A stretch of DNA of 24,000 nucleotides, from positions 47,159 through 71,158 of the forward strand of contig JBKQTE010000092.1 in NCBI GenBank assembly GCA_052143315.1. The letters run 5' to 3'. A program made the translations under genes and the position numbers. This document shows positions 8,853 to 18,098 of the stretch, one piece after another. This DNA is from Acidimicrobiales bacterium. GTDB taxonomy: Bacteria; Actinomycetota; Acidimicrobiia; Acidimicrobiales; RAAP-2. The first letter of the stretch is position 1. Each line of letters begins with the position of its first letter. Under the pieces are notes generated by a model. It made no database searches and was not told where the DNA came from. It was given only the letters and a program-made list of their open reading frames with translations.

Positions 8853-9011
8853 CTACCCCTCGGTGAGCTCCTTCACCTCGCTCAACCGATGCTCGAGGCT
8901 GGAGAGCTCCAGGTCGAGCGCCTCCCGGGTGACGGCTGCGTGCTCGAGCTCCTCCAGGCGTCGTTCCAGCTCGTCGATCCGGCTGGACAGCGCCTCGATG
9001 TCGGTGGTCAT
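8853..9011 (-). CDS. 52-aa predicted coiled-coil micro-protein (below the 60-aa cut-off of the ORF track)
   Basis: My translation of the minus strand gives MTTDIEALSSRIDELERRLEELEHAAVTREALDLELSSLEHRLSEVKELTEG, ending in TAG (8853-8855). The ATG (9011-9009) overlaps the upstream gene's TGA as ATGA. GAGGAGGA lies 6-7 nt upstream. Third codon positions are almost all G/C, as in neighbouring genes. Confidence 0.5.
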   Translation of the reverse strand: MTTDIEALSSRIDELERRLEELEHAAVTREALDLELSSLEHRLSEVKELTEG

Positions 9012-10645
9012 CCGCTTCCTCCTCTGTTCGTCGGATGGTGGAGCTGCGCCCCGGTGTCGCCGGGATCCACCAGCTCGTGCCTCCGACCGTAGGGCGGGTC
9101 GGGGTCGGCGAAAAGGGCCGAAGGTCCCGATCGGGCCGGAAGGGCGTCGACGGCCAGGCCCACGGCCTCGGCCGGCGCCGTCCCGGAGGTGTCGATGACG
9201 GCGCTAGGCGTCCACGGGTCCATCGATCGCTGCATCGCCGCTCTCACCTCCGGGGTCGCCTCGGAGCTGTCGGCGCGTTCCGACAGGCGTCGCCGGATCC
9301 GTTGATCCGCCACCTCGGCGGCCGCGTCACACCTCAGCTCGACGAGATCGGCGGCGGCGCCATCGGCCACCGAACGCACCTCGGCCCGCCGAGCGGCACT
9401 GGTCCACGACGCGTCGAGGACGACGGACTCACCGAGTCCGAGCAGTCGCTCGGCTGTCTGCATCAGTTCGGCGTACACAGACTCGGTGGCGGCAGGGACG
9501 TACCGGCCGGAGAGGTACCCGGGCACCTCGGGACCGCCCGGGGCGGCCAGGCTCCTCCGCACCTCATCGGAGCGGAGCACGGTCCATCCCCGGGCTGCGC
9601 CGAGGCCGGCGGCGACGGTGGACTTCCCCGTGCCCGGTAGCCCTCCCACCAGCACGAGCGTGACGGCCGCCCGTCGGAGGTGGGTCAGGGCCAGCTGGTG
9701 GAAGGTTCCGGCCTCGATCCGGGCCGCATCGGCTCCCTGGGCAGCCCGGAGACAGCAGACCTTGGCCCGGACATAGGCCCGGGAGGCGCAGTAGTAGTGG
9801 ACCAGACCGTCGGGCACGGGATCGGCCGCCAGCTCCCGGTAGCGAGCAAGGAGGTGCTCGGCGGCGTCGCCCCGGCCCAGATGCTCGAGGTCCATGGCCA
9901 GGAAGGCCACGTCGGCAGCCACGTCGGCGAAGCGCAGCCGGTCGGAGAATTCGAGGCAGTCGAGGATCCGAACACCGTCGTCGAGGCAGAAGATGTCCTC
10001 GGCCTGGAGATCCCCATGGCCGTCGCACACCCGCCCCGCACGGATCCGGGTCTCGAACAGCGGCTCCCGGCCCCTGGTCCAGCGGTCGGCCAGCCACCGG
10101 ATCTCCAGATCGACCGTCTCGTCCAGGACGGTCCCCAGGTAGGGGCGGGTCTCCACGAAGTTGTCGGACCAGGCCGCCCACAGCGACGCACCGGTCGCCG
10201 CCTCGGCGATGGCGGGCGAACGCGCCGCCCGGGCGTGGAACGCCACCAGGGTCTGGGCCACCGGCTCGAGCCACCTGTCGAGATCCGGTCCCCGGCGGGC
10301 CAGCTCCGCCAGCCGGCGTTCCTCGGGCATACGTCTCATGACCACCACGGAGTCGACGGTCCGACCTTCGAACCGGATGTCGGCCACACCCAGATAGACG
10401 TCCGGGGCCAGACGCCGATTGAGCTCGACCTCGCGTTCGCAGTCGATCCGTCGGGCTTCGGGCTGCGTGAAGTCGACGAACTCGAAGCGAACCGGCTTCC
10501 GCACCTTGTAGACCCGGTCACCGACGAAGAACAGCCTCGAGACATGGGTCTCCACGATGCGGTCCGGCTGCTCTTCGCCTGCCGAGTCGCATCCCACCTC
10601 CGGCCTCCTCCATGCGCCAGGCCCCGCCCGGCCGGGCATGACCAC
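9008..10645 (-). CDS. Fusion of an aminoglycoside-phosphotransferase-like (protein-kinase-fold) domain and a C-terminal P-loop kinase/ATPase domain
   Basis: N-terminal half: ETHVSRLFFVGDRVYKVRKP, catalytic-loop-like CDGHGDLQAEDIF, and ILDCLEF. C-terminal half: Walker A LVGGLPGTGKST. The start is uncertain: ATG at 10645, or GTG at 10597 preceded by GGAGGAGG. The last ~40 residues are low-complexity. Confidence 0.75.
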   Translation of the reverse strand: MVMPGRAGPGAWRRPEVGCDSAGEEQPDRIVETHVSRLFFVGDRVYKVRKPVRFEFVDFTQPEARRIDCEREVELNRRLAPDVYLGVADIRFEGRTVDSVVVMRRMPEERRLAELARRGPDLDRWLEPVAQTLVAFHARAARSPAIAEAATGASLWAAWSDNFVETRPYLGTVLDETVDLEIRWLADRWTRGREPLFETRIRAGRVCDGHGDLQAEDIFCLDDGVRILDCLEFSDRLRFADVAADVAFLAMDLEHLGRGDAAEHLLARYRELAADPVPDGLVHYYCASRAYVRAKVCCLRAAQGADAARIEAGTFHQLALTHLRRAAVTLVLVGGLPGTGKSTVAAGLGAARGWTVLRSDEVRRSLAAPGGPEVPGYLSGRYVPAATESVYAELMQTAERLLGLGESVVLDASWTSAARRAEVRSVADGAAADLVELRCDAAAEVADQRIRRRLSERADSSEATPEVRAAMQRSMDPWTPSAVIDTSGTAPAEAVGLAVDALPARSGPSALFADPDPPYGRRHELVDPGDTGAQLHHPTNRGGSG

Positions 10646-10815
10646 CCGTGCGACCCTGCTCTCCAGAGTGGTCCGAACCGGGGCGCCGGCACAGAGCCGA
10701 AGGTCACAAGGTGGACCGGCGACGACCGGCCGGGACGGGGACCTTTGGCCCTTGCGGGAACCGGCCCGTCCGCCCGATCATGGAGGTGACCAGGCATCCT
10801 TCGAAGGGGACGACC

Positions 10816-13179
10816 ATGCAAGCACGGACGGCGACTCTCCCCGGGGAGGCCGGAGCGGCCCCCCTCGCCGCTCGCGTCCGCTGCCGCTACCGGGTCGGTG
10901 GCGTCGTCCAGGGAGTCGGCTTCCGACCCTTCGTGTACGTCACCGCCACCGGGCTCTCGCTCACCGGGTGGGTGCGGAACGGCTCCTCGGGCGTCACCGT
11001 CGAGGTCGAGGGCCAACCGCACCAGGTGGCGGCGTTCGAGCGACGGCTGCACGACCAGCCTCCCCGATCGGCCATCGTCGAGAGCATCGTCAAAGAGGAG
11101 CTGGCGCCCCGCGGAGGCACCGGCTTCGTCATCGAGGGCTCCGGTGCCGCTGGGGACGTCCGGACGCTGGCCTCCCCCGACATCGCCACCTGCGAGGCCT
11201 GCTTGGAGGAGATGGCCGATCCCACCGACCGTCGATACCGGCACCCGTTCATCACCTGCACCGACTGCGGGCCCCGCTTCACCATCATCACCCGCCTGCC
11301 CTACGACCGACCGGCCACCACCATGGCCGACTTTCCCCTGTGCGCCGAGTGCGCCACCGAGTACGCCGATCCTGGCGACCGTCGGTTCCATGCCCAGCCC
11401 ATCGCCTGTCCCGACTGCGGTCCGGAGCTCGAGCTGGTGGTGCCCGGCCAGCCGGTGCCGGTCGGGGAGGCGGCCCTCGTCCGGGCCCGCTCGCTCCTCG
11501 CCGGCGGCGCCATCCTGGCGGTGAAGGGACTCGGCGGCTACCACCTGGTCTGCGACGCCACCGACCAGGCAGCCGTCGCCGAGCTGCGCCGGCGCAAGCG
11601 GCGCGGGGACAAGCCCCTCGCCGTGATGGTGGCCGATCTCGGAGCGGCCCGAGTCCTAGCCGAGATCGGCCAGGCCGAGGCGGACCTGCTCACCTCCCCC
11701 CGGCGCCCGATCGTCCTCCTGGCCCGCCAGGCGGGCCCGGAACGGGTCGCTCCGGCGGTGGCGCCCGGCAGTCCCGACCTCGGGCTGATGCTGGCCTACA
11801 CCCCCCTGCACCGGCTGCTGTTCGGGCTGCCCGGCGATGCGGCCGGTACCCGGGCCCTGGTCATGACGTCGGGGAACCTGGGCGGCGAGCCGATCGTCTA
11901 CCGGGACCATGAGGCGATGACCCGGCTGGCGCCACTGGTCGACGGCTGGCTGCGCCACGACCGCCCGATCGCCGTCCCGTGCGACGACTCGGTGTCCCGT
12001 GTGGTCGACGGCGAGGAGCTGCCCATCCGCCGGTCCCGCGGCTACGCCCCGCTGCCGGTGACGCTTCCTTTCGAGGTGCCGGCCATCCTGGCCGTGGGGG
12101 GGGACGTGAAGAACGCCTTCTGCGTGGCCGAGGGCCACCACGCCTGGATGAGCCAGCACATCGGCGACATGGACGACCTGGCCACCCTGGACGCCCTCGG
12201 TGCCACCGAGCAGAGGCTGGAATGCCTCACCGGCGTGGTGCCCGAGCTGGTGGTCGCCGACCGCCACCCCGCCTACCGCTCCGGCGGATGGGCGTTCCGC
12301 CATGCCGCCGGGCGCCCTCACGTCAGGGTCCAGCACCACCACGCCCATATCGCCTCGGTGATGGGCGAGCACGGACTCGACGGCCGGGAGCGGGTCATCG
12401 GTGTCGCCTTCGACGGCACCGGCTACGGGTCGGACGGGGCGGTGTGGGGCGGCGAGGTCCTCGTTGCCGACTACGAGGGATTCGAGCGGTTCGCCCATCT
12501 GGCCTACGTCCCCCTGCCGGGCGGCGACGCCAGCGTGGAGCGCCCCTACCGCATGGCACTGGCCCACCTGGCCGCCGCCGGCGTGGACTGGGATCCCGAC
12601 CTCCCGCCGGTGGCCGGCTGCCCGGGTGCGGAACGTGCGGTGCTGGCCCACCAGCTGGCCACCGGGTTCAACTGTGTCCCGACCTCCAGCATGGGCCGAC
12701 TGTTCGACGCGGTGGCCTCCCTGGCCGGCGTCCGGCAGATCGCCGACTTCGAGGCCCAGGCGGCCATCGAGCTCGAGGGGGTCTCCCGTGATGTCCCCCC
12801 CGACGAGGGCTACGGGTTCGCCCTCGACCCGGCGGGCGGCGCCGGCCAGCCACTGGTGGCCGACGCCACACCGGTGATCGCCGCCGTGGTCGCCGACCGG
12901 CGTGGCGGTGTCCCGACCGCCCTGATCGGTGCCCGCTTCCACGCCGCAGTGGCCGACCTGGTGGTGGCGGTGGCCGGGTCGGCCCGCCGGCGGAGCGGCC
13001 TTGGCACGGTGGTGCTGTCGGGTGGCGTCTTCCAGAACGCTCTGCTGCTCGGGGCGGTGCGGACCCGGTTGCGGGCCGGCGGGTTCATCGTGCTCTGTCC
13101 GCGCCTCCTTCCCCCGAACGACGGGGGCCTCGCCCTCGGCCAGGTGCTGGTGGGCGCGCGAGCCAGAAGGGTCGGCTGA
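10816..13179 (+). CDS. hypF: [NiFe]-hydrogenase maturation carbamoyltransferase HypF
   Basis: Acylphosphatase motif VQGVGFRPFVY. Two zinc-finger pairs: CEAC-x18-CTDC (from nt 11191) and CAEC-x18-CPDC. YrdC-like KGLGGYHLVCDA and a Kae1-like C-terminal half are present. I prefer ATG 10816 (GAAGGGGA 6 nt upstream) over the track start at 10648. Confidence 0.93.
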   Translation: MQARTATLPGEAGAAPLAARVRCRYRVGGVVQGVGFRPFVYVTATGLSLTGWVRNGSSGVTVEVEGQPHQVAAFERRLHDQPPRSAIVESIVKEELAPRGGTGFVIEGSGAAGDVRTLASPDIATCEACLEEMADPTDRRYRHPFITCTDCGPRFTIITRLPYDRPATTMADFPLCAECATEYADPGDRRFHAQPIACPDCGPELELVVPGQPVPVGEAALVRARSLLAGGAILAVKGLGGYHLVCDATDQAAVAELRRRKRRGDKPLAVMVADLGAARVLAEIGQAEADLLTSPRRPIVLLARQAGPERVAPAVAPGSPDLGLMLAYTPLHRLLFGLPGDAAGTRALVMTSGNLGGEPIVYRDHEAMTRLAPLVDGWLRHDRPIAVPCDDSVSRVVDGEELPIRRSRGYAPLPVTLPFEVPAILAVGGDVKNAFCVAEGHHAWMSQHIGDMDDLATLDALGATEQRLECLTGVVPELVVADRHPAYRSGGWAFRHAAGRPHVRVQHHHAHIASVMGEHGLDGRERVIGVAFDGTGYGSDGAVWGGEVLVADYEGFERFAHLAYVPLPGGDASVERPYRMALAHLAAAGVDWDPDLPPVAGCPGAERAVLAHQLATGFNCVPTSSMGRLFDAVASLAGVRQIADFEAQAAIELEGVSRDVPPDEGYGFALDPAGGAGQPLVADATPVIAAVVADRRGGVPTALIGARFHAAVADLVVAVAGSARRRSGLGTVVLSGGVFQNALLLGAVRTRLRAGGFIVLCPRLLPPNDGGLALGQVLVGARARRVG

Positions 13180-13439
13180 TGTGCCTGGCCGTTCCCGGAC
13201 GGGTGGTCCGGACGTGGTCGATCGACGGCACCCTCATGGCCCAGGTGGACTTCGGTGGCGTGCGCAAGGATGTCTGCCTGCAGTACCTGCCTGAGGCGGT
13301 GATCGACGACTACGTGATCGTCCATGTCGGCTTCGCCATCCAGCAGCTCGACGAGCGTTCCGCCCTCGAGACGTTGGAGGCCTTCGAGCGGATGGGCGTC
13401 CTGGCCGAGGAGCTCGGCGACGGGGGAACCCGGGGATGA
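13179..13439 (+). CDS. hypC: Hydrogenase maturation chaperone HypC/HupF family
   Basis: The N-terminal [10 protein letters not shown] carries the essential Cys2, and [12 protein letters not shown] is present. 86 aa. The ATG shares one nt with the hypF TGA (TGATG). Confidence 0.9.
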
Positions 13440-14548
13440 AGTACCTCGACGAGTTCGCCGACCCGGACCTGGCCCGTCACCTGCTCGACCGGATCCGAGC
13501 CATCACCACCCGCCGGTGGGCGATCATGGAGGTGTGCGGGGGCCAGACCCACTCGATCATCCGCCACGGCATCGACCAGCTGTTGCCCGGGGAGATCGAG
13601 CTGATCCACGGTCCCGGGTGCCCGGTCTGCGTCACCCCGGTGGAGATCGTCGACAGGGCCCTGGCCATCGCCGCCCGGCCCGACGTCATCTTCTGCTCGT
13701 TCGGGGACATGCTGCGGGTGCCGGGAAGCCGCGGGGACCTCTTCGGGGTGAAGAGCGCCGGCGCTGACGTGCGGGTGGTCTACTCGCCCCTCGACGCCCT
13801 CGAGGTGGCCCGGGCCAATCCCGAGCGGGAGGTGGTCTTCTTCGGCATCGGCTTCGAGACCACGGCGCCGGCCAACGCCATGACCGTCCACCAGGCGGAG
13901 CGGCTGGGTATCGCCAACTTCTCGCTGCTGGTCTCCCACGTGCTGGTGCCGCCGGCCATCGCCGCCATCATGGAGTCGCCCAACTGCAGGGTGCAGGGGT
14001 TCCTGGCCGCCGGGCACGTGTGCAGCGTCATGGGCACCCACCAGTACCCCGAGCTGGCCGCCACCTACCGGGTCCCCATCGTGGTCACCGGGTTCGAGCC
14101 ACTGGACATCCTCGAGGGTATCCGACGGACCGTCGCCCAGCTCGAGTCGGGTCGGTACCAGGTGGAGAATGCCTACCGGCGGGCGGTGACCGATGAGGGC
14201 AACGTGGCCGCCCAGCAGATGTTGGAGGAGGTCTTCGAGGTCACCGACCGCTCCTGGCGGGGCATCGGGACGATCCCGCAGAGCGGCTGGAGGCTGTCCG
14301 ACCGCTACCGTGCCTACGACGCCGAGGACCGCTTCGGCATCGGCTCGGTCCGCACCGACGAGTCGGCGGCGTGCCGGGCCGGTGAGGTGCTCCAGGGCCT
14401 GATCAAGCCCAACGAGTGCGAGGCGTTCGGTCGGGAGTGCACGCCACGCAGCCCGCTCGGCGCCACCATGGTGTCCTCGGAAGGGGCCTGTGCCGCCTAC
14501 TACCTCTACCGCCGGCTCGAGCTGACCGTGGCGGGCCCCAATGGTTGA
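13436..14548 (+). CDS. hypD: Hydrogenase maturation protein HypD
   Basis: MKYLDEF N-terminus, with motifs [21 protein letters not shown] and [12 protein letters not shown] overlap with the hypC stop. Confidence 0.93.
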
Positions 14549-15623
14549 CCGGGGGCGGGCGGAGCGGCCCCTCCCCGACTTCGAGGGCTGGACGTGCCCG
14601 GTGCCGCTGCGAGACTCGCCGGTCATCGTGATGGGCCACGGGGGGGGCGGCGCCATGTCGGCCGAGCTCGTCGAGCACCTGTTCCTCCCCGCCTACGGTG
14701 AGGCCGCCTCCGCCGAGCTCGGCGACGCCGCCGTCCTGTCCCTGGGTGGCGGCCACCGGCTGGCCTTCTCCACCGACTCGTTCGTCGTCAAGCCGGTGTT
14801 CTTCCCCGGTGGCTCCATCGGCGACCTCGCCGTCAATGGGACGGTCAACGACCTGGCCATGTCCGGGGCCCGTCCGATGGTGCTGTCGACCGCCTTCATC
14901 CTCGAGGAGGGGACGACCCTCTCCGACCTCGGCCGTATCGCCATGTCGCTGGGGTCGGCGGCCCTGGCCGCCGGGGTCCGGCTGGTCACCGGCGATACCA
15001 AGGTGGTCGACCGCGGGTCGGGGGACGGCGTCTACATCAACACGGCGGGCATCGGGGTGCTCGATGACGGCGTCGACATCCGTCCCGAGCGGGCCCGGGC
15101 CGGTGACGTGGTCATCGTCAGCGGCGACATCGGCGTGCACGGCGTGGCCGTGATGAGCTGCCGGGAGGGAGTCGGCTTCACCACCGACCTGGAGAGCGAC
15201 ACGGCACCGCTGCACGGGCTGGTGGCCGCCATGCTGGGCACCGGAGCCGACGTCCACGCGCTGCGGGACCCGACCCGCGGCGGCGTGGCCGCCTCGCTCA
15301 ACGAGATCGGCCGGGCCGCCAAGGTCGGGATCGCACTGGTCGAGCGTGACCTTCCCGTCCCCGATGGGGTCAGGGACGCCTGCGGCCTGCTGGGGCTCGA
15401 CCCCTTGCACGTGGCCAACGAGGGGAAGCTGCTGGCCTTCGTGCCGCCGGACGACGCAGACCGGGTGCTCGAGGCCATGCACCGGCACCCCCTGGGTGGC
15501 GACGCCCGGGCGGTCGGGGTCTGCGTCGAGGACCATCCCGGGATGGTGGTGGCCCGCACGGCTCTCGGCGGTACCCGCGTCGTCGACCTGCCGGTGGGCG
15601 AGCAGCTGCCGCGGATCTGTTGA
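14541..15623 (+). CDS. hypE: Hydrogenase maturation protein HypE (carbamoyl dehydratase)
   Basis: WTCPVPL...[14 protein letters not shown]-terminus, a PurM/AIR-synthase-like body, and a C-terminal PRIC motif ending on the essential Cys. 8-nt overlap with hypD. Confidence 0.93.
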
Positions 15624-16378
15624 GGATGACGGCCTCGGAACCGGGTCAGGCGCTCTTCGCCCGCTACGCCTACCCCCCCAACGAGCTCGGCTACTGCGGC
15701 CCGACGGACGGGTCGCCCCTCCTCCAGCGGGCGTCGGGTGATCAGGCCATGGACATCGCCGCCCATGCCCGTCAGTTCGAGGGGGCGTGGACCTATCTGG
15801 AGCTCATCGCTTCGGCCGTCGGGATCGACGACCCCCTCGACCGCCGGGTGGTCCAGGCCTACTGGGTGGGCAACGACCTGCTCGACCGGGTCGCCCCGTC
15901 CGTCCTGGTGGCCAGGCTGGGCCAGGAGCTCGAGGGACAGGTCGGCGGGTTCTGGAGCCGCATGGGCCCGGCGGCCGAGGAGCTGGCGCTCCCCCACCAC
16001 AGCTTCCACGTGTTCGCCGTCTACCCCTGGGTCGGCCTCCTCGGCTCTGCCGGCGACGTCCCCCTGTCGGTGCTGGACCGGTGCCGGATACGGTGGGGCG
16101 AGGTGGTGGGCATCGACGGGGAGCGGGCCACCGTCCGGTCCCGGCCGCTCCGGTGGGACGGCGACGAGCTGTCGTTGGGGCCCGAGCGGGAGGAGGCGGT
16201 GCGCTGGTCCTCGTCCGGTCGGTCGCTGGTCGGGGGCATCGTCCCCGGCGACCATGTGTCGCTCCACTGGGACTGGGTCTGCGACCGTCTGGGTGCGGCC
16301 GAGCTGGGGGCGCTGGAGCTCACCAGCGCCCGTCAGCTCGAACTGACCAACACCCAGCTTCGGGAAGGAGCCCGCTGA
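15620..16378 (+). CDS. Conserved hypothetical protein coupled to hypE; the C-terminal half resembles a HypC-like OB-fold
   Basis: Begins at TTG 15620 (overlapping the hypE TGA) or at ATG 15626. The N-terminal motif is YAYPPNELGYCGP. G/C third positions match the hyp genes. I recall this type of protein being annotated as a DUF family next to hypE in actinobacteria, but cannot verify that here. Confidence 0.65.
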   Translation: MRMTASEPGQALFARYAYPPNELGYCGPTDGSPLLQRASGDQAMDIAAHARQFEGAWTYLELIASAVGIDDPLDRRVVQAYWVGNDLLDRVAPSVLVARLGQELEGQVGGFWSRMGPAAEELALPHHSFHVFAVYPWVGLLGSAGDVPLSVLDRCRIRWGEVVGIDGERATVRSRPLRWDGDELSLGPEREEAVRWSSSGRSLVGGIVPGDHVSLHWDWVCDRLGAAELGALELTSARQLELTNTQLREGAR

Positions 16379-16475: not shown

Positions 16476-18098
16476 TCAGTCGCTCGAGGACTGCCTCCAG
16501 TCCTCCACTCGCCGGATCAGGTCGTCAGGACGTTCGAGACGCATGGCCGGCTCTCCCCGGTAGACCAGGCCGGTCCCGCCGTCGACGGTGACCAGGTCAC
16601 CCTCGCGGAGCTCCGCGTCGCCCATCCGGAGCCTCCCATGATCAGCATCGACCTCCAGGCCGGCACATCCGACCACGCAGGCCAGACCCAGCTGACGGGC
16701 GACCACTGCGGCGTGGGACGTTCGGGCACCGGTCGCCGTCACCAGACCCCGGCAGACGGCAAGGCCCGGGATGTCCTCGGTCGAGGCCTCGTGGCGTACG
16801 AGGACCACCGGATCGCCGTCCAGACAGAACTGCTGGGCAGCGTCGGTGGTCAGCGCCATCCGCCCACTGCCGACCCCATCGCTGGCAGGAGTGCCCCGCC
16901 CGAGGACCTCGACATCGTCCTCGTCCGCCACGCGGAGGCGTGAGATGGTGTCGAGCGCATACGGCTCCAGTCGATCGAGCGCCGTGGCGACATCGACCAG
17001 CCCCTCGTCGACCAGGTCGCAGGCGATCCGGAGGGCCGCCCAGGGCGTGCGCTTGGCCGTACGGGTCTGCAGCATCCACAGTGTCCCCTCTTGTACGGTG
17101 AACTCGAAATCCTGGACGTCGCGAAAGAGGACCTCGAGCGTCCGACGGACGTTCTGCAGTTGGTGCGCCAGACCCGGCACGGCGGCGATGGACCGATCAG
17201 AGTCGCCCACCGTGTGGCGACCCGCCACCACGTCCTCCCCCTGGGCATTGAGGATGAAGTCGATGTACGGGCGGTTCTCCCCCGTCGCCGGGTCGCGGGT
17301 GAAGCCCACCCCCGACCCCGATGCCGCTCCCATGTTGCCGAAGACCATGGCCTGCACGGTCACCGCCGTCCCGATCAGATCGGTCAAGCCCTGTATCGCT
17401 CGATAGGTGACGGCCTTCGGACTGTTCCACGAGCGGAACACCGCGGCGACCGCCCCGAGGAGCTGCTCCTCCGGGTCTTGGGGAAACGCTCGGCCGACGA
17501 TCGACCTGAACACGTCCTGCTGTCGCCGGACCACTGCCCGCAGGGCGGCAACATCGAGCTCGTCGGCGGTCGGCGCCCCGAACTGGACCATCACCTCGGT
17601 CAGCACTCTGGCGAACGGTGCCGCCGGGCACCCCTCGACCACCTCGGCGTAGGCCTGGATCAGGCGGCGGTAGGAGTCCCAGACGAACACCGGGTCACCG
17701 GTGGCGCGAAGCAGTCCGGGCAGCGTCGCATCGGAGAGGCCGACGTTCAGGATCGTCTCGAGCATGCCGGGCATGGAGACGGCCGCTCCCGAGCGAACCG
17801 ACACCAGAAGCGGACGGCGACCTGCGGCGAACCGCTGGCCGGTCAGGCGCTCGAGCGTTCCGATCCCGTTGAGCACGTCGTCGACGACCTCGTCATCGAG
17901 CGTCCCACCTGCTTCGACGAACCTCTGGCACGACTGTGTGCCGAGGACGAAGGCCGGTGGAGTCGGCAGGCCGGCCTCGCTCATCATCATGAGGTTGAAG
18001 GCCTTCCTGCCCACCTCCCGGGGCGTCACCTCACGGGCGCTGGCCGCGCCGATCGTCCAGACCGGCCTCGCTCCCCCTGGGGAGACGGGACTGCTCAC
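16476..18098 (-). CDS. PPDK-like protein with only the nucleotide-binding (ATP-grasp) and phospho-His swivel domains; no PEP/pyruvate-binding TIM barrel
   Basis: PPDK N-terminal motifs RRPLLVSVRSGAAVSMPGMLETILNVGLSD and GFTRDPATGENRPYIDFILNAQGEDVVAGRHT. Swivel domain VVLVRHEASTEDIPG...TGARTSHAAVVARQLGLACVVG (His codon at 16713-16715). The protein ends 78 aa after the His. Preferred start is GTG 18098-18096, which overlaps the upstream gene's TGA (GTGA). The track start at 18182 would overlap the upstream gene by 88 nt. Confidence 0.8.
   Translation of the reverse strand: MSSPVSPGGARPVWTIGAASAREVTPREVGRKAFNLMMMSEAGLPTPPAFVLGTQSCQRFVEAGGTLDDEVVDDVLNGIGTLERLTGQRFAAGRRPLLVSVRSGAAVSMPGMLETILNVGLSDATLPGLLRATGDPVFVWDSYRRLIQAYAEVVEGCPAAPFARVLTEVMVQFGAPTADELDVAALRAVVRRQQDVFRSIVGRAFPQDPEEQLLGAVAAVFRSWNSPKAVTYRAIQGLTDLIGTAVTVQAMVFGNMGAASGSGVGFTRDPATGENRPYIDFILNAQGEDVVAGRHTVGDSDRSIAAVPGLAHQLQNVRRTLEVLFRDVQDFEFTVQEGTLWMLQTRTAKRTPWAALRIACDLVDEGLVDVATALDRLEPYALDTISRLRVADEDDVEVLGRGTPASDGVGSGRMALTTDAAQQFCLDGDPVVLVRHEASTEDIPGLAVCRGLVTATGARTSHAAVVARQLGLACVVGCAGLEVDADHGRLRMGDAELREGDLVTVDGGTGLVYRGEPAMRLERPDDLIRRVEDWRQSSSD

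Follow-up and report, generated by a model that had tools for sequence, protein, structure and literature searches.

The window described here, by which we mean the whole 24,000-nucleotide stretch that was analysed (C92:47159-71158 of a 3.5 Mb Acidimicrobiales assembly, 93% complete), carries a [NiFe]-hydrogenase maturation operon of five chained plus-strand genes: hypF-hypC-hypD-hypE and, behind them, a gene encoding a protein of the Pfam family DUF6390, the subject of this study. We find that the rear half of this protein is, by profile comparison and modelling, a remote homologue of the chaperone HypC, with its key cysteine placed internally behind a new helical domain. An earlier, sequence-only reading had coupled the open reading frame (ORF) to hypE, and so it stands: the gene begins either at TTG 15620-15622, which overlaps the hypE stop TGA (15621-15623), or at the in-frame ATG 15626, from which residue numbers are counted throughout. 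Since the gene that follows, PPDK-like and on the minus strand, converges on it and ends at 16476, the DUF6390 gene closes the operon. A search of the hyp operon for consensus promoter-like or terminator-like sites gave none.

The fifth protein is a full-length member of DUF6390 (PF19927; 325.5 bits against a cut-off of 25, spanning positions 3-242 of the 244 in the model; E-value in Table 1), an identity missing from the sequence-only account of the ORF. NCBIfam models gave no match to it. DUF6390 is a large family, comprising more than 6,200 clusters at 90% identity and 1,241 at 50%; it is catalogued yet undescribed, neither a function nor a fold being attached to it. A literature search returned no paper that mentions DUF6390 or PF19927, literature on group 1h hypothetical proteins yielded nothing about the family, and the mycobacterial Hhy/Huc paper contains no discussion of it.

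Kinship with HypC, which the sequence-only reading had proposed by eye for the C-terminal ~90 residues, escapes the usual searches. Pairwise BLAST of the window's HypC against the DUF6390 ORF gave no significant alignment, PF01455 and TIGR00074 did not match the whole protein, and with the Pfam HypC model the last 100 residues, searched by themselves, gave no hit at E ≤ 10; a family member from Streptomyces reached only E 0.047 against that model. The likeness is therefore visible only by profiles or by structure. In the AlphaFold model of the whole protein (Table 1), a helical domain takes up residues 1-153, strands lie between residues 155 and 221, and a long helix follows at 224-249. When this full-length model was used in Foldseek, weak generic oligonucleotide/oligosaccharide-binding (OB) folds were returned over 61-168 columns and HypC was absent from the top 50, so the C-domain had to be modelled alone. 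The C-terminal 100 residues then gave the same fold, an OB barrel with a C-terminal helix, at a predicted local distance difference test score (pLDDT) of 93. Against 350,542 chains of the Protein Data Bank (PDB), the top match of the C-domain model is HypC of Thermococcus kodakarensis (3vyr_A, E 6.1e-3, 26% identity), and the HypC chains 3vyr_A, 3vyt_A, 2z1c_B, 3vyu_A and 3vys_A take ranks 1, 3, 6, 10 and 25, with 21-26% identity and target-normalised template-modelling scores of 0.60-0.86. Ribosomal S17/eS11 and exosome OB folds, with 11-20% identity, make up the remaining matches. When PDB sequences were searched by profile, the single match was to an epoxide hydrolase at E 0.64, which we discarded as spurious.

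Profile-profile comparison points the same way. Aligned with hhalign, 66 diverse DUF6390 C-domains and 87 HypC/HupF sequences match with 91.5% probability (E 8.7e-7, score 37.2). The corresponding scores are 10.0 for the N-domain and 10.8 for the reversed C-domain, and 200 column permutations gave a mean of 10.7 (standard deviation 2.7, maximum 23.8). Shallow alignments, with effective sequence numbers (Neff) of 2.6 and 2.2, gave a probability of 1.4%, hence the need for more diverse ones. We also ranked the 16,888 stop-to-stop ORFs of the annotated loci by profile hidden Markov models (HMMs) in both directions. With the DUF6390 C-domain HMM, the first 40 or more non-self places are taken by HypC/HupF ORFs, the lone apparent exception being an unlabelled HypC; with the HypC HMM, eight unlabelled HypC ORFs are followed by DUF6390 ORFs for roughly 60 places.

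The core of the significant hhalign alignment sets a stretch of HypC against GDHVSLHWDWVCDRL, which is the second of the two matches noticed by eye. The extended and global alignments place C153 on HypC Cys2, G158 on Gly7, V160 on Val9 and H214 on His49, which we take to be His51 in E. coli HypC numbering. The first by-eye match survives in part: its C-x4-G-x-V-V pattern is reproduced in these longer alignments, whereas the shared 'IDG' falls out of register and is probably due to chance. Taken with the domain model, Foldseek and the reciprocal HMM ranking, the alignments argue for a HypC/HupF-like OB fold over the last 90-100 residues. The cysteine that had been singled out as the equivalent of HypC Cys2 is indeed encoded, by TGC, at 16082-16084; it is internal, and it is invariant.

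The N-terminal domain, about residues 1-150, is all-helical in the AlphaFold model, and Foldseek with the full-length model found no match for it among solved structures. It carries the motifs FARYAYPPNELGYCGP and PHHSFHVFAVYPW. The YAYPPNELGYCGP motif that the sequence-only reading had picked out as conserved-looking proves to be so: among 198 distinct sequences, F11, A15, P18 and N19 are kept in 98-99%, and C24 and G25 in all. Over the whole protein the invariant residues are C24, G25, H125, V129, C153 and H214; G208 is present in 99%, C219 in 97%, and H124 and H128 in 76% each. C153 and H214 are the counterparts of the two functional residues of HypC, and C24 and H125 sit in the helical domain. 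Because all four are invariant, this Cys2His2 set spans both domains, and we infer from conservation that the four may form one metal site across the domain boundary.

Table 1. Genes of the hyp operon and features of the DUF6390 gene (positions in the window)
Feature	Position	Strand	Remarks	Evidence
hypF (carbamoyltransferase)	10648..13179	+	first gene of the operon; exact start uncertain	Pfam Acylphosphatase, zf-HYPF, Sua5_yciO_yrdC, HypF_C, HypF_C_2
hypC	13179..13439	+	canonical chaperone, 86 residues, N-terminus MCLAVPG	PF01455 E 9e-26, TIGR00074 E 5.4e-21
hypD	13436..14548	+		PF01924 E 7.7e-154
hypE	14541..15623	+	C-terminus ...PRIC-stop	Pfam AIRS and AIRS_C
DUF6390 gene	15620..16378	+	last gene of the operon	PF19927 E 2.7e-97; AlphaFold mean pLDDT 91
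N-terminal all-helical domain (predicted)	15626..16075	+	residues 1-150	model secondary structure, Foldseek, conservation
Cys24 codon	15695..15697	+	invariant	100% of 198 distinct sequences
His125 codon	15998..16000	+	invariant	conservation, 198 distinct sequences
HypC-like domain (predicted)	16082..16375	+	residues 153-250, OB barrel then long C-terminal helix	pLDDT 93, Foldseek, hhalign, reciprocal HMM
Cys153 codon (TGC)	16082..16084	+	invariant, aligned with HypC Cys2	hhalign alignment, conservation
His214 codon	16265..16267	+	invariant, aligned with HypC His49	hhalign alignment, conservation
Cys219 codon	16280..16282	+	in 97% of sequences, no HypC counterpart	conservation

HypC/HybG (PF01455, TIGR00074; 2z1c, 3vyr, 3vys-3vyu) and the DUF6390 C-domain thus appear to have in common an OB barrel with a C-terminal helix, a cysteine that opens strand 1 as part of C-x4-G-x-V, a G-D-x-V-x-x-H motif with a conserved histidine, and a place in hyp operons, near hypD and hypE or the large subunit. 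Unlike HypC, a stand-alone protein of about 75-110 residues, DUF6390 has 250 residues in two domains; its cysteine is residue 153 of 250, behind a conserved domain and not at a free N-terminus, the 150-residue helical domain in front brings an invariant cysteine and histidine of its own, and a further conserved cysteine, Cys219, is present. HupF/HoxL, HypC paralogues of aerobic hydrogen oxidisers, offer another parallel, each being, like DUF6390, a HypC-derived module with an added region. The extra region of HupF is reported to be C-terminal (PMC3534401), whereas the addition in DUF6390 is N-terminal and buries the cysteine. Both HupF/HoxL and DUF6390 occur alongside an ordinary HypC, in organisms that make hydrogenase in air. 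An analogy may also be drawn with the HypC-HypD complex (3vyr), in which the HypC cysteine meets cysteines of a partner domain to hold iron; in DUF6390 the partner would be a small helical domain of the protein itself, with no detectable similarity to HypD. By its HypC kinship, its internal cysteine and its cross-domain Cys2His2 set, DUF6390 appears to be a new form of HypC-type chaperone.

More than 593 GTDB species genomes encode a DUF6390 relative, and we analysed the best 80 loci, mostly from Actinomycetota with some from Chloroflexota and Dormibacterota, annotating them by means of profiles that represent the hyp proteins of the window and a reference cluster. At 73 of these 80 loci, hydrogenase or hyp genes were recognised. 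Forty-four of 92 DUF6390 genes stand directly behind hypE, with projected starts from -18 to +19 nucleotides relative to the hypE stop, which confirms in other genomes the synteny anticipated for the window. These hypE-linked copies are usually found in hypF-C-D-E operons that end group-1h-type clusters, where NifU-like, DUF5947, DUF6084 and protease genes also occur. About 20 loci are arranged differently: genes for the small and large subunits and the protease, then a HupF-like hypC of 3b type, come before DUF6390. An EamA permease gene is directly upstream of DUF6390 in at least 14 copies, and in the 3b-type loci it stands between the HupF-like hypC and DUF6390. At L039, L056, L072, L077, L089 and L095, in 3b-type clusters, this EamA/DMT permease gene is immediately 5' of DUF6390, often overlapping it.

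A maximum-likelihood tree divides DUF6390 into three groups: a hyp-operon-linked clade (48 rows, support 94/99) that contains the window's protein, the EamA-linked groups, and a third clade near large subunits. The window's copy is an ordinary member of the hypE-coupled subfamily. Four loci (L011, L026, L038, L052) hold two paralogs in one hydrogenase cluster, one behind hypE and the other behind a HupF-like hypC, and these belong to different clades of the tree. Two annotated plasmids also have DUF6390 in hyp operons. On a plasmid of Sulfobacillus acidophilus DSM 10332, hypF-C-x-D-E-tatA is followed by a DUF6390 gene, Sulac_3616 ('hypothetical protein'), which precedes a cytochrome-b-linked hydrogenase, and on a Mycobacterium intracellulare plasmid hypE-hypC-hypD is followed by a 'DUF6390 family protein'. 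In one further genome (G175:C24:61231-63047) DUF6390 lies directly behind hypD, across a 51-nucleotide gap and with no hypE between them, as it does on the M. intracellulare plasmid. The Cupriavidus plasmid records in the plasmid collection contain no DUF6390 copy at E ≤ 1e-3, so the megaplasmid of this model organism, provided that the collection includes it, does not help with DUF6390. A co-occurrence with hypE, and with particular [NiFe]-hydrogenase groups, had been suggested as a check on the family's role; the former is seen, the latter is not. We reject specificity for one hydrogenase group, as DUF6390 is seen with 1h-type, 3b-type, cytochrome-b-linked and mycobacterial plasmid clusters, and it accompanies hydrogenase maturation in general, not one enzyme group.

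Co-occurrence was examined in 251 genomes of the same phylum as the source. DUF6390 is encoded in 14 of them, HypD in 130 and a hydrogenase large subunit (E ≤ 1e-8) in 138; every one of the 14 DUF6390 carriers has a large subunit. Five carriers (G009, G017, G067, G116 and G125, at L091-L095), which represent five families and include one closed genome, lack HypD and show nothing above the cut-offs for HypE and HypF. Their assemblies are 94-100% complete, and in all five DUF6390 lies within about 3-8 kb of the large subunit; in G009, hypA and hypB are still found in the DUF6390 cluster. DUF6390 occurs in five of the seven genomes that have a large subunit (E 1e-14 or better) without HypD and in nine of the 126 with both, which is to be read as an enrichment and not as a rule, because related genomes are non-independent and the sample is small. 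Many of the large-subunit matches in this sample (e.g. G020, G050, G060, G211) carry a single in-frame TGA, which fits selenocysteine-containing [NiFeSe] hydrogenases.

The source genome has a single DUF6390 copy and one clear hydrogenase, of group 3b type, 10 kb upstream; among solved structures its closest relative is sulfhydrogenase I alpha (E 1.8e-60). In this cluster (C92:33000-44000; L007:5296-15517), genes for a protease, a second HypC that is HupF-like, a CooF-like ferredoxin, a Ni-CO dehydrogenase (Prismane family, E 3.4e-184), CooC and a flavin adenine dinucleotide (FAD) oxidoreductase, a flavoprotein, come directly behind the hydrogenase. The whole looks like a soluble CO-oxidising, hydrogen-linked module. 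Further upstream of the hydrogenase, at 5296-6441 of L007, is a gene for a Fer4_22 iron-sulfur protein. HypC, HypD, HypE and HypF are all present in the source genome, with two ordinary HypC genes. HypA was not found and HypB had no match above the cut-off, absences that are not proven because 7% of the genome is missing.

In the pathway as generally understood, the N-terminal cysteine of HypC and a cysteine of HypD hold iron, HypE and HypF provide cyanide for it, and HypC then brings Fe(CN)2CO to the large subunit. HupF retains this N-terminal cysteine. A rear half that is a distant HypC with an internal key cysteine makes DUF6390 probably an unrecognised metal-handling helper for [NiFe] hydrogenases. 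We favour, at a probability of roughly 60%, a role for DUF6390 as a metal-binding, iron-holding maturation factor beside HypCDE, a two-domain accessory in which a new helical domain of ~150 residues is directly joined to a diverged HypC domain. At the domain interface, C24, H125, C153 and H214, perhaps together with C219, may form one metal site; if so, the helical domain would cap this HypC-type cysteine in cis, on the side at which the free N-terminus of HypC contacts HypD. The protein might hold bare Fe or a partly ligated Fe-CO/CN intermediate and exchange the iron in either direction with the HypC-HypD-HypE machinery, or deliver it to the large subunit, thereby serving as donor, acceptor or store of the iron unit beside HypCDE. 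In the source genome it would be made together with HypE and would serve the group 3b hydrogenase.

Several points weigh against an iron-holding factor. The cysteine of HypC is generally taken to require a free N-terminus, and therefore the same chemistry may not be open to an internal one. It is also hard to see why a genome with two ordinary HypC genes should need a third module of HypC type. That C24 and H125 lie close to C153 and H214 is an assumption, and the literature search found no reported metal binding, protein partner or phenotype for any DUF6390 member. The structural likeness to HypC is also narrow, as its Foldseek E-values (6e-3) barely beat those of ribosomal S17-type OB folds and the lead is small. 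These many S17/eS11 and exosome matches, with E-values so close to those of HypC, would suit a generic OB-fold protein that is unrelated to HypC and a mere passenger in hyp operons. We regard that notion as scarcely credible and already disfavoured: profile searches single out HypC in both directions among the ORFs ranked, the cysteine and histidine of HypC align with invariant DUF6390 residues, and synteny is kept across phyla.

It is possible, though we think it unlikely, that DUF6390 is a large-subunit chaperone in the manner of HupF, HoxL or HybG, in which the large subunit, before it is processed, would be bound by the HypC-like domain and shielded or stabilised by the helical one, for example against oxygen, no cofactor being carried by DUF6390. 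Consistent with such a role, the carriers in the best 80 loci come mostly from largely aerobic groups (Streptomyces, Nocardioidaceae, Pseudonocardiales, Acidimicrobiia, Chloroflexota, Dormibacterota), two of the three subfamilies adjoin the large subunit, a protease and a HupF-like gene rather than hypE, and the HypC-type ORFs that score best with the C-domain HMM are mostly neighbouring HupF-like genes. However, in the subfamily of the window's protein the coupling is to hypE and not to a large subunit, and four strictly invariant Cys/His residues over both domains resemble a metal site more than a docking surface. A more doubtful idea is that DUF6390 might be the core of an active-site iron route independent of HypD, HypE and HypF, its helical domain serving as a built-in substitute for HypD, with the hypE-coupled paralogue of HypCDEF genomes as a second scaffold in the same pathway. 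In a lesser variant of this idea, DUF6390 would be a pro-form that is cut just before Cys153 to release a HypC with a free N-terminal cysteine. To our knowledge, the Fe(CN)2CO part of the [NiFe] site is universally ascribed to HypC, HypD, HypE and HypF. Since DUF6390 is found here inside a complete hypFCDE operon, it is not simply a substitute for HypD, HypE and HypF. The five carriers without HypD in the 251-genome sample tell against a regulator or competitor of HypC, which would occupy the HypC site on HypD or HypE and, with a blocked cysteine unable to complete the cofactor, throttle or gate maturation: these genomes offer no HypD, HypE or HypF as a target for regulation, and still DUF6390 is kept beside their hydrogenase. 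An internal cysteine and a translational coupling that fixes the ratio to HypE would both be expected of such a regulator, but competition alone would not explain why the histidine and three further Cys/His residues stay invariant, and we hold this role to be improbable. The reading first offered for the ORF, a variant scaffold/chaperone or a regulator of HypCD, fits the data, which do not separate a metal scaffold from a regulator. Very unlikely, in our view, is a nickel handler that replaces HypA and HypB by way of the PHHSFH histidines. It would account for the His-rich motif of the N-domain in a 93%-complete genome where neither HypA nor HypB was found; nevertheless, both are encoded in the same cluster as DUF6390 in G009 (L091), at L009/L016 and on the Sulfobacillus plasmid, which leads us to reject DUF6390 as their replacement, and of the three histidines only H125 is invariant. 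The homologous module, HypC, moreover handles iron.

If iron is bound by the cross-domain Cys2His2 set, DUF6390 would represent an added step or an alternative scaffold in the Fe(CN)2CO pathway, and might explain how hydrogenases are retained in some genomes without HypD, HypE and HypF. It is a widespread, unstudied HypC relative in soil bacteria that consume atmospheric hydrogen (Streptomyces, Mycobacterium, Acidimicrobiia, Chloroflexota), and it offers a concrete, deletable gene and four mutable residues in culturable organisms.

Two further observations concern reading frames. At L047, L051, L053, L066, L082, L085 and L094 the DUF6390 frame is open for 490-720 codons upstream; such frames may be fusions with the upstream gene, or may reflect the scarcity of stop codons in GC-rich DNA. 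Some representative DUF6390 proteins have 340-600 residues. In the window itself, a Pfam scan of the plus strand gave no match for the ORFs tested within 9008-10645, an interval that on the minus strand holds an ORF of 545 residues, divergent from hypF.

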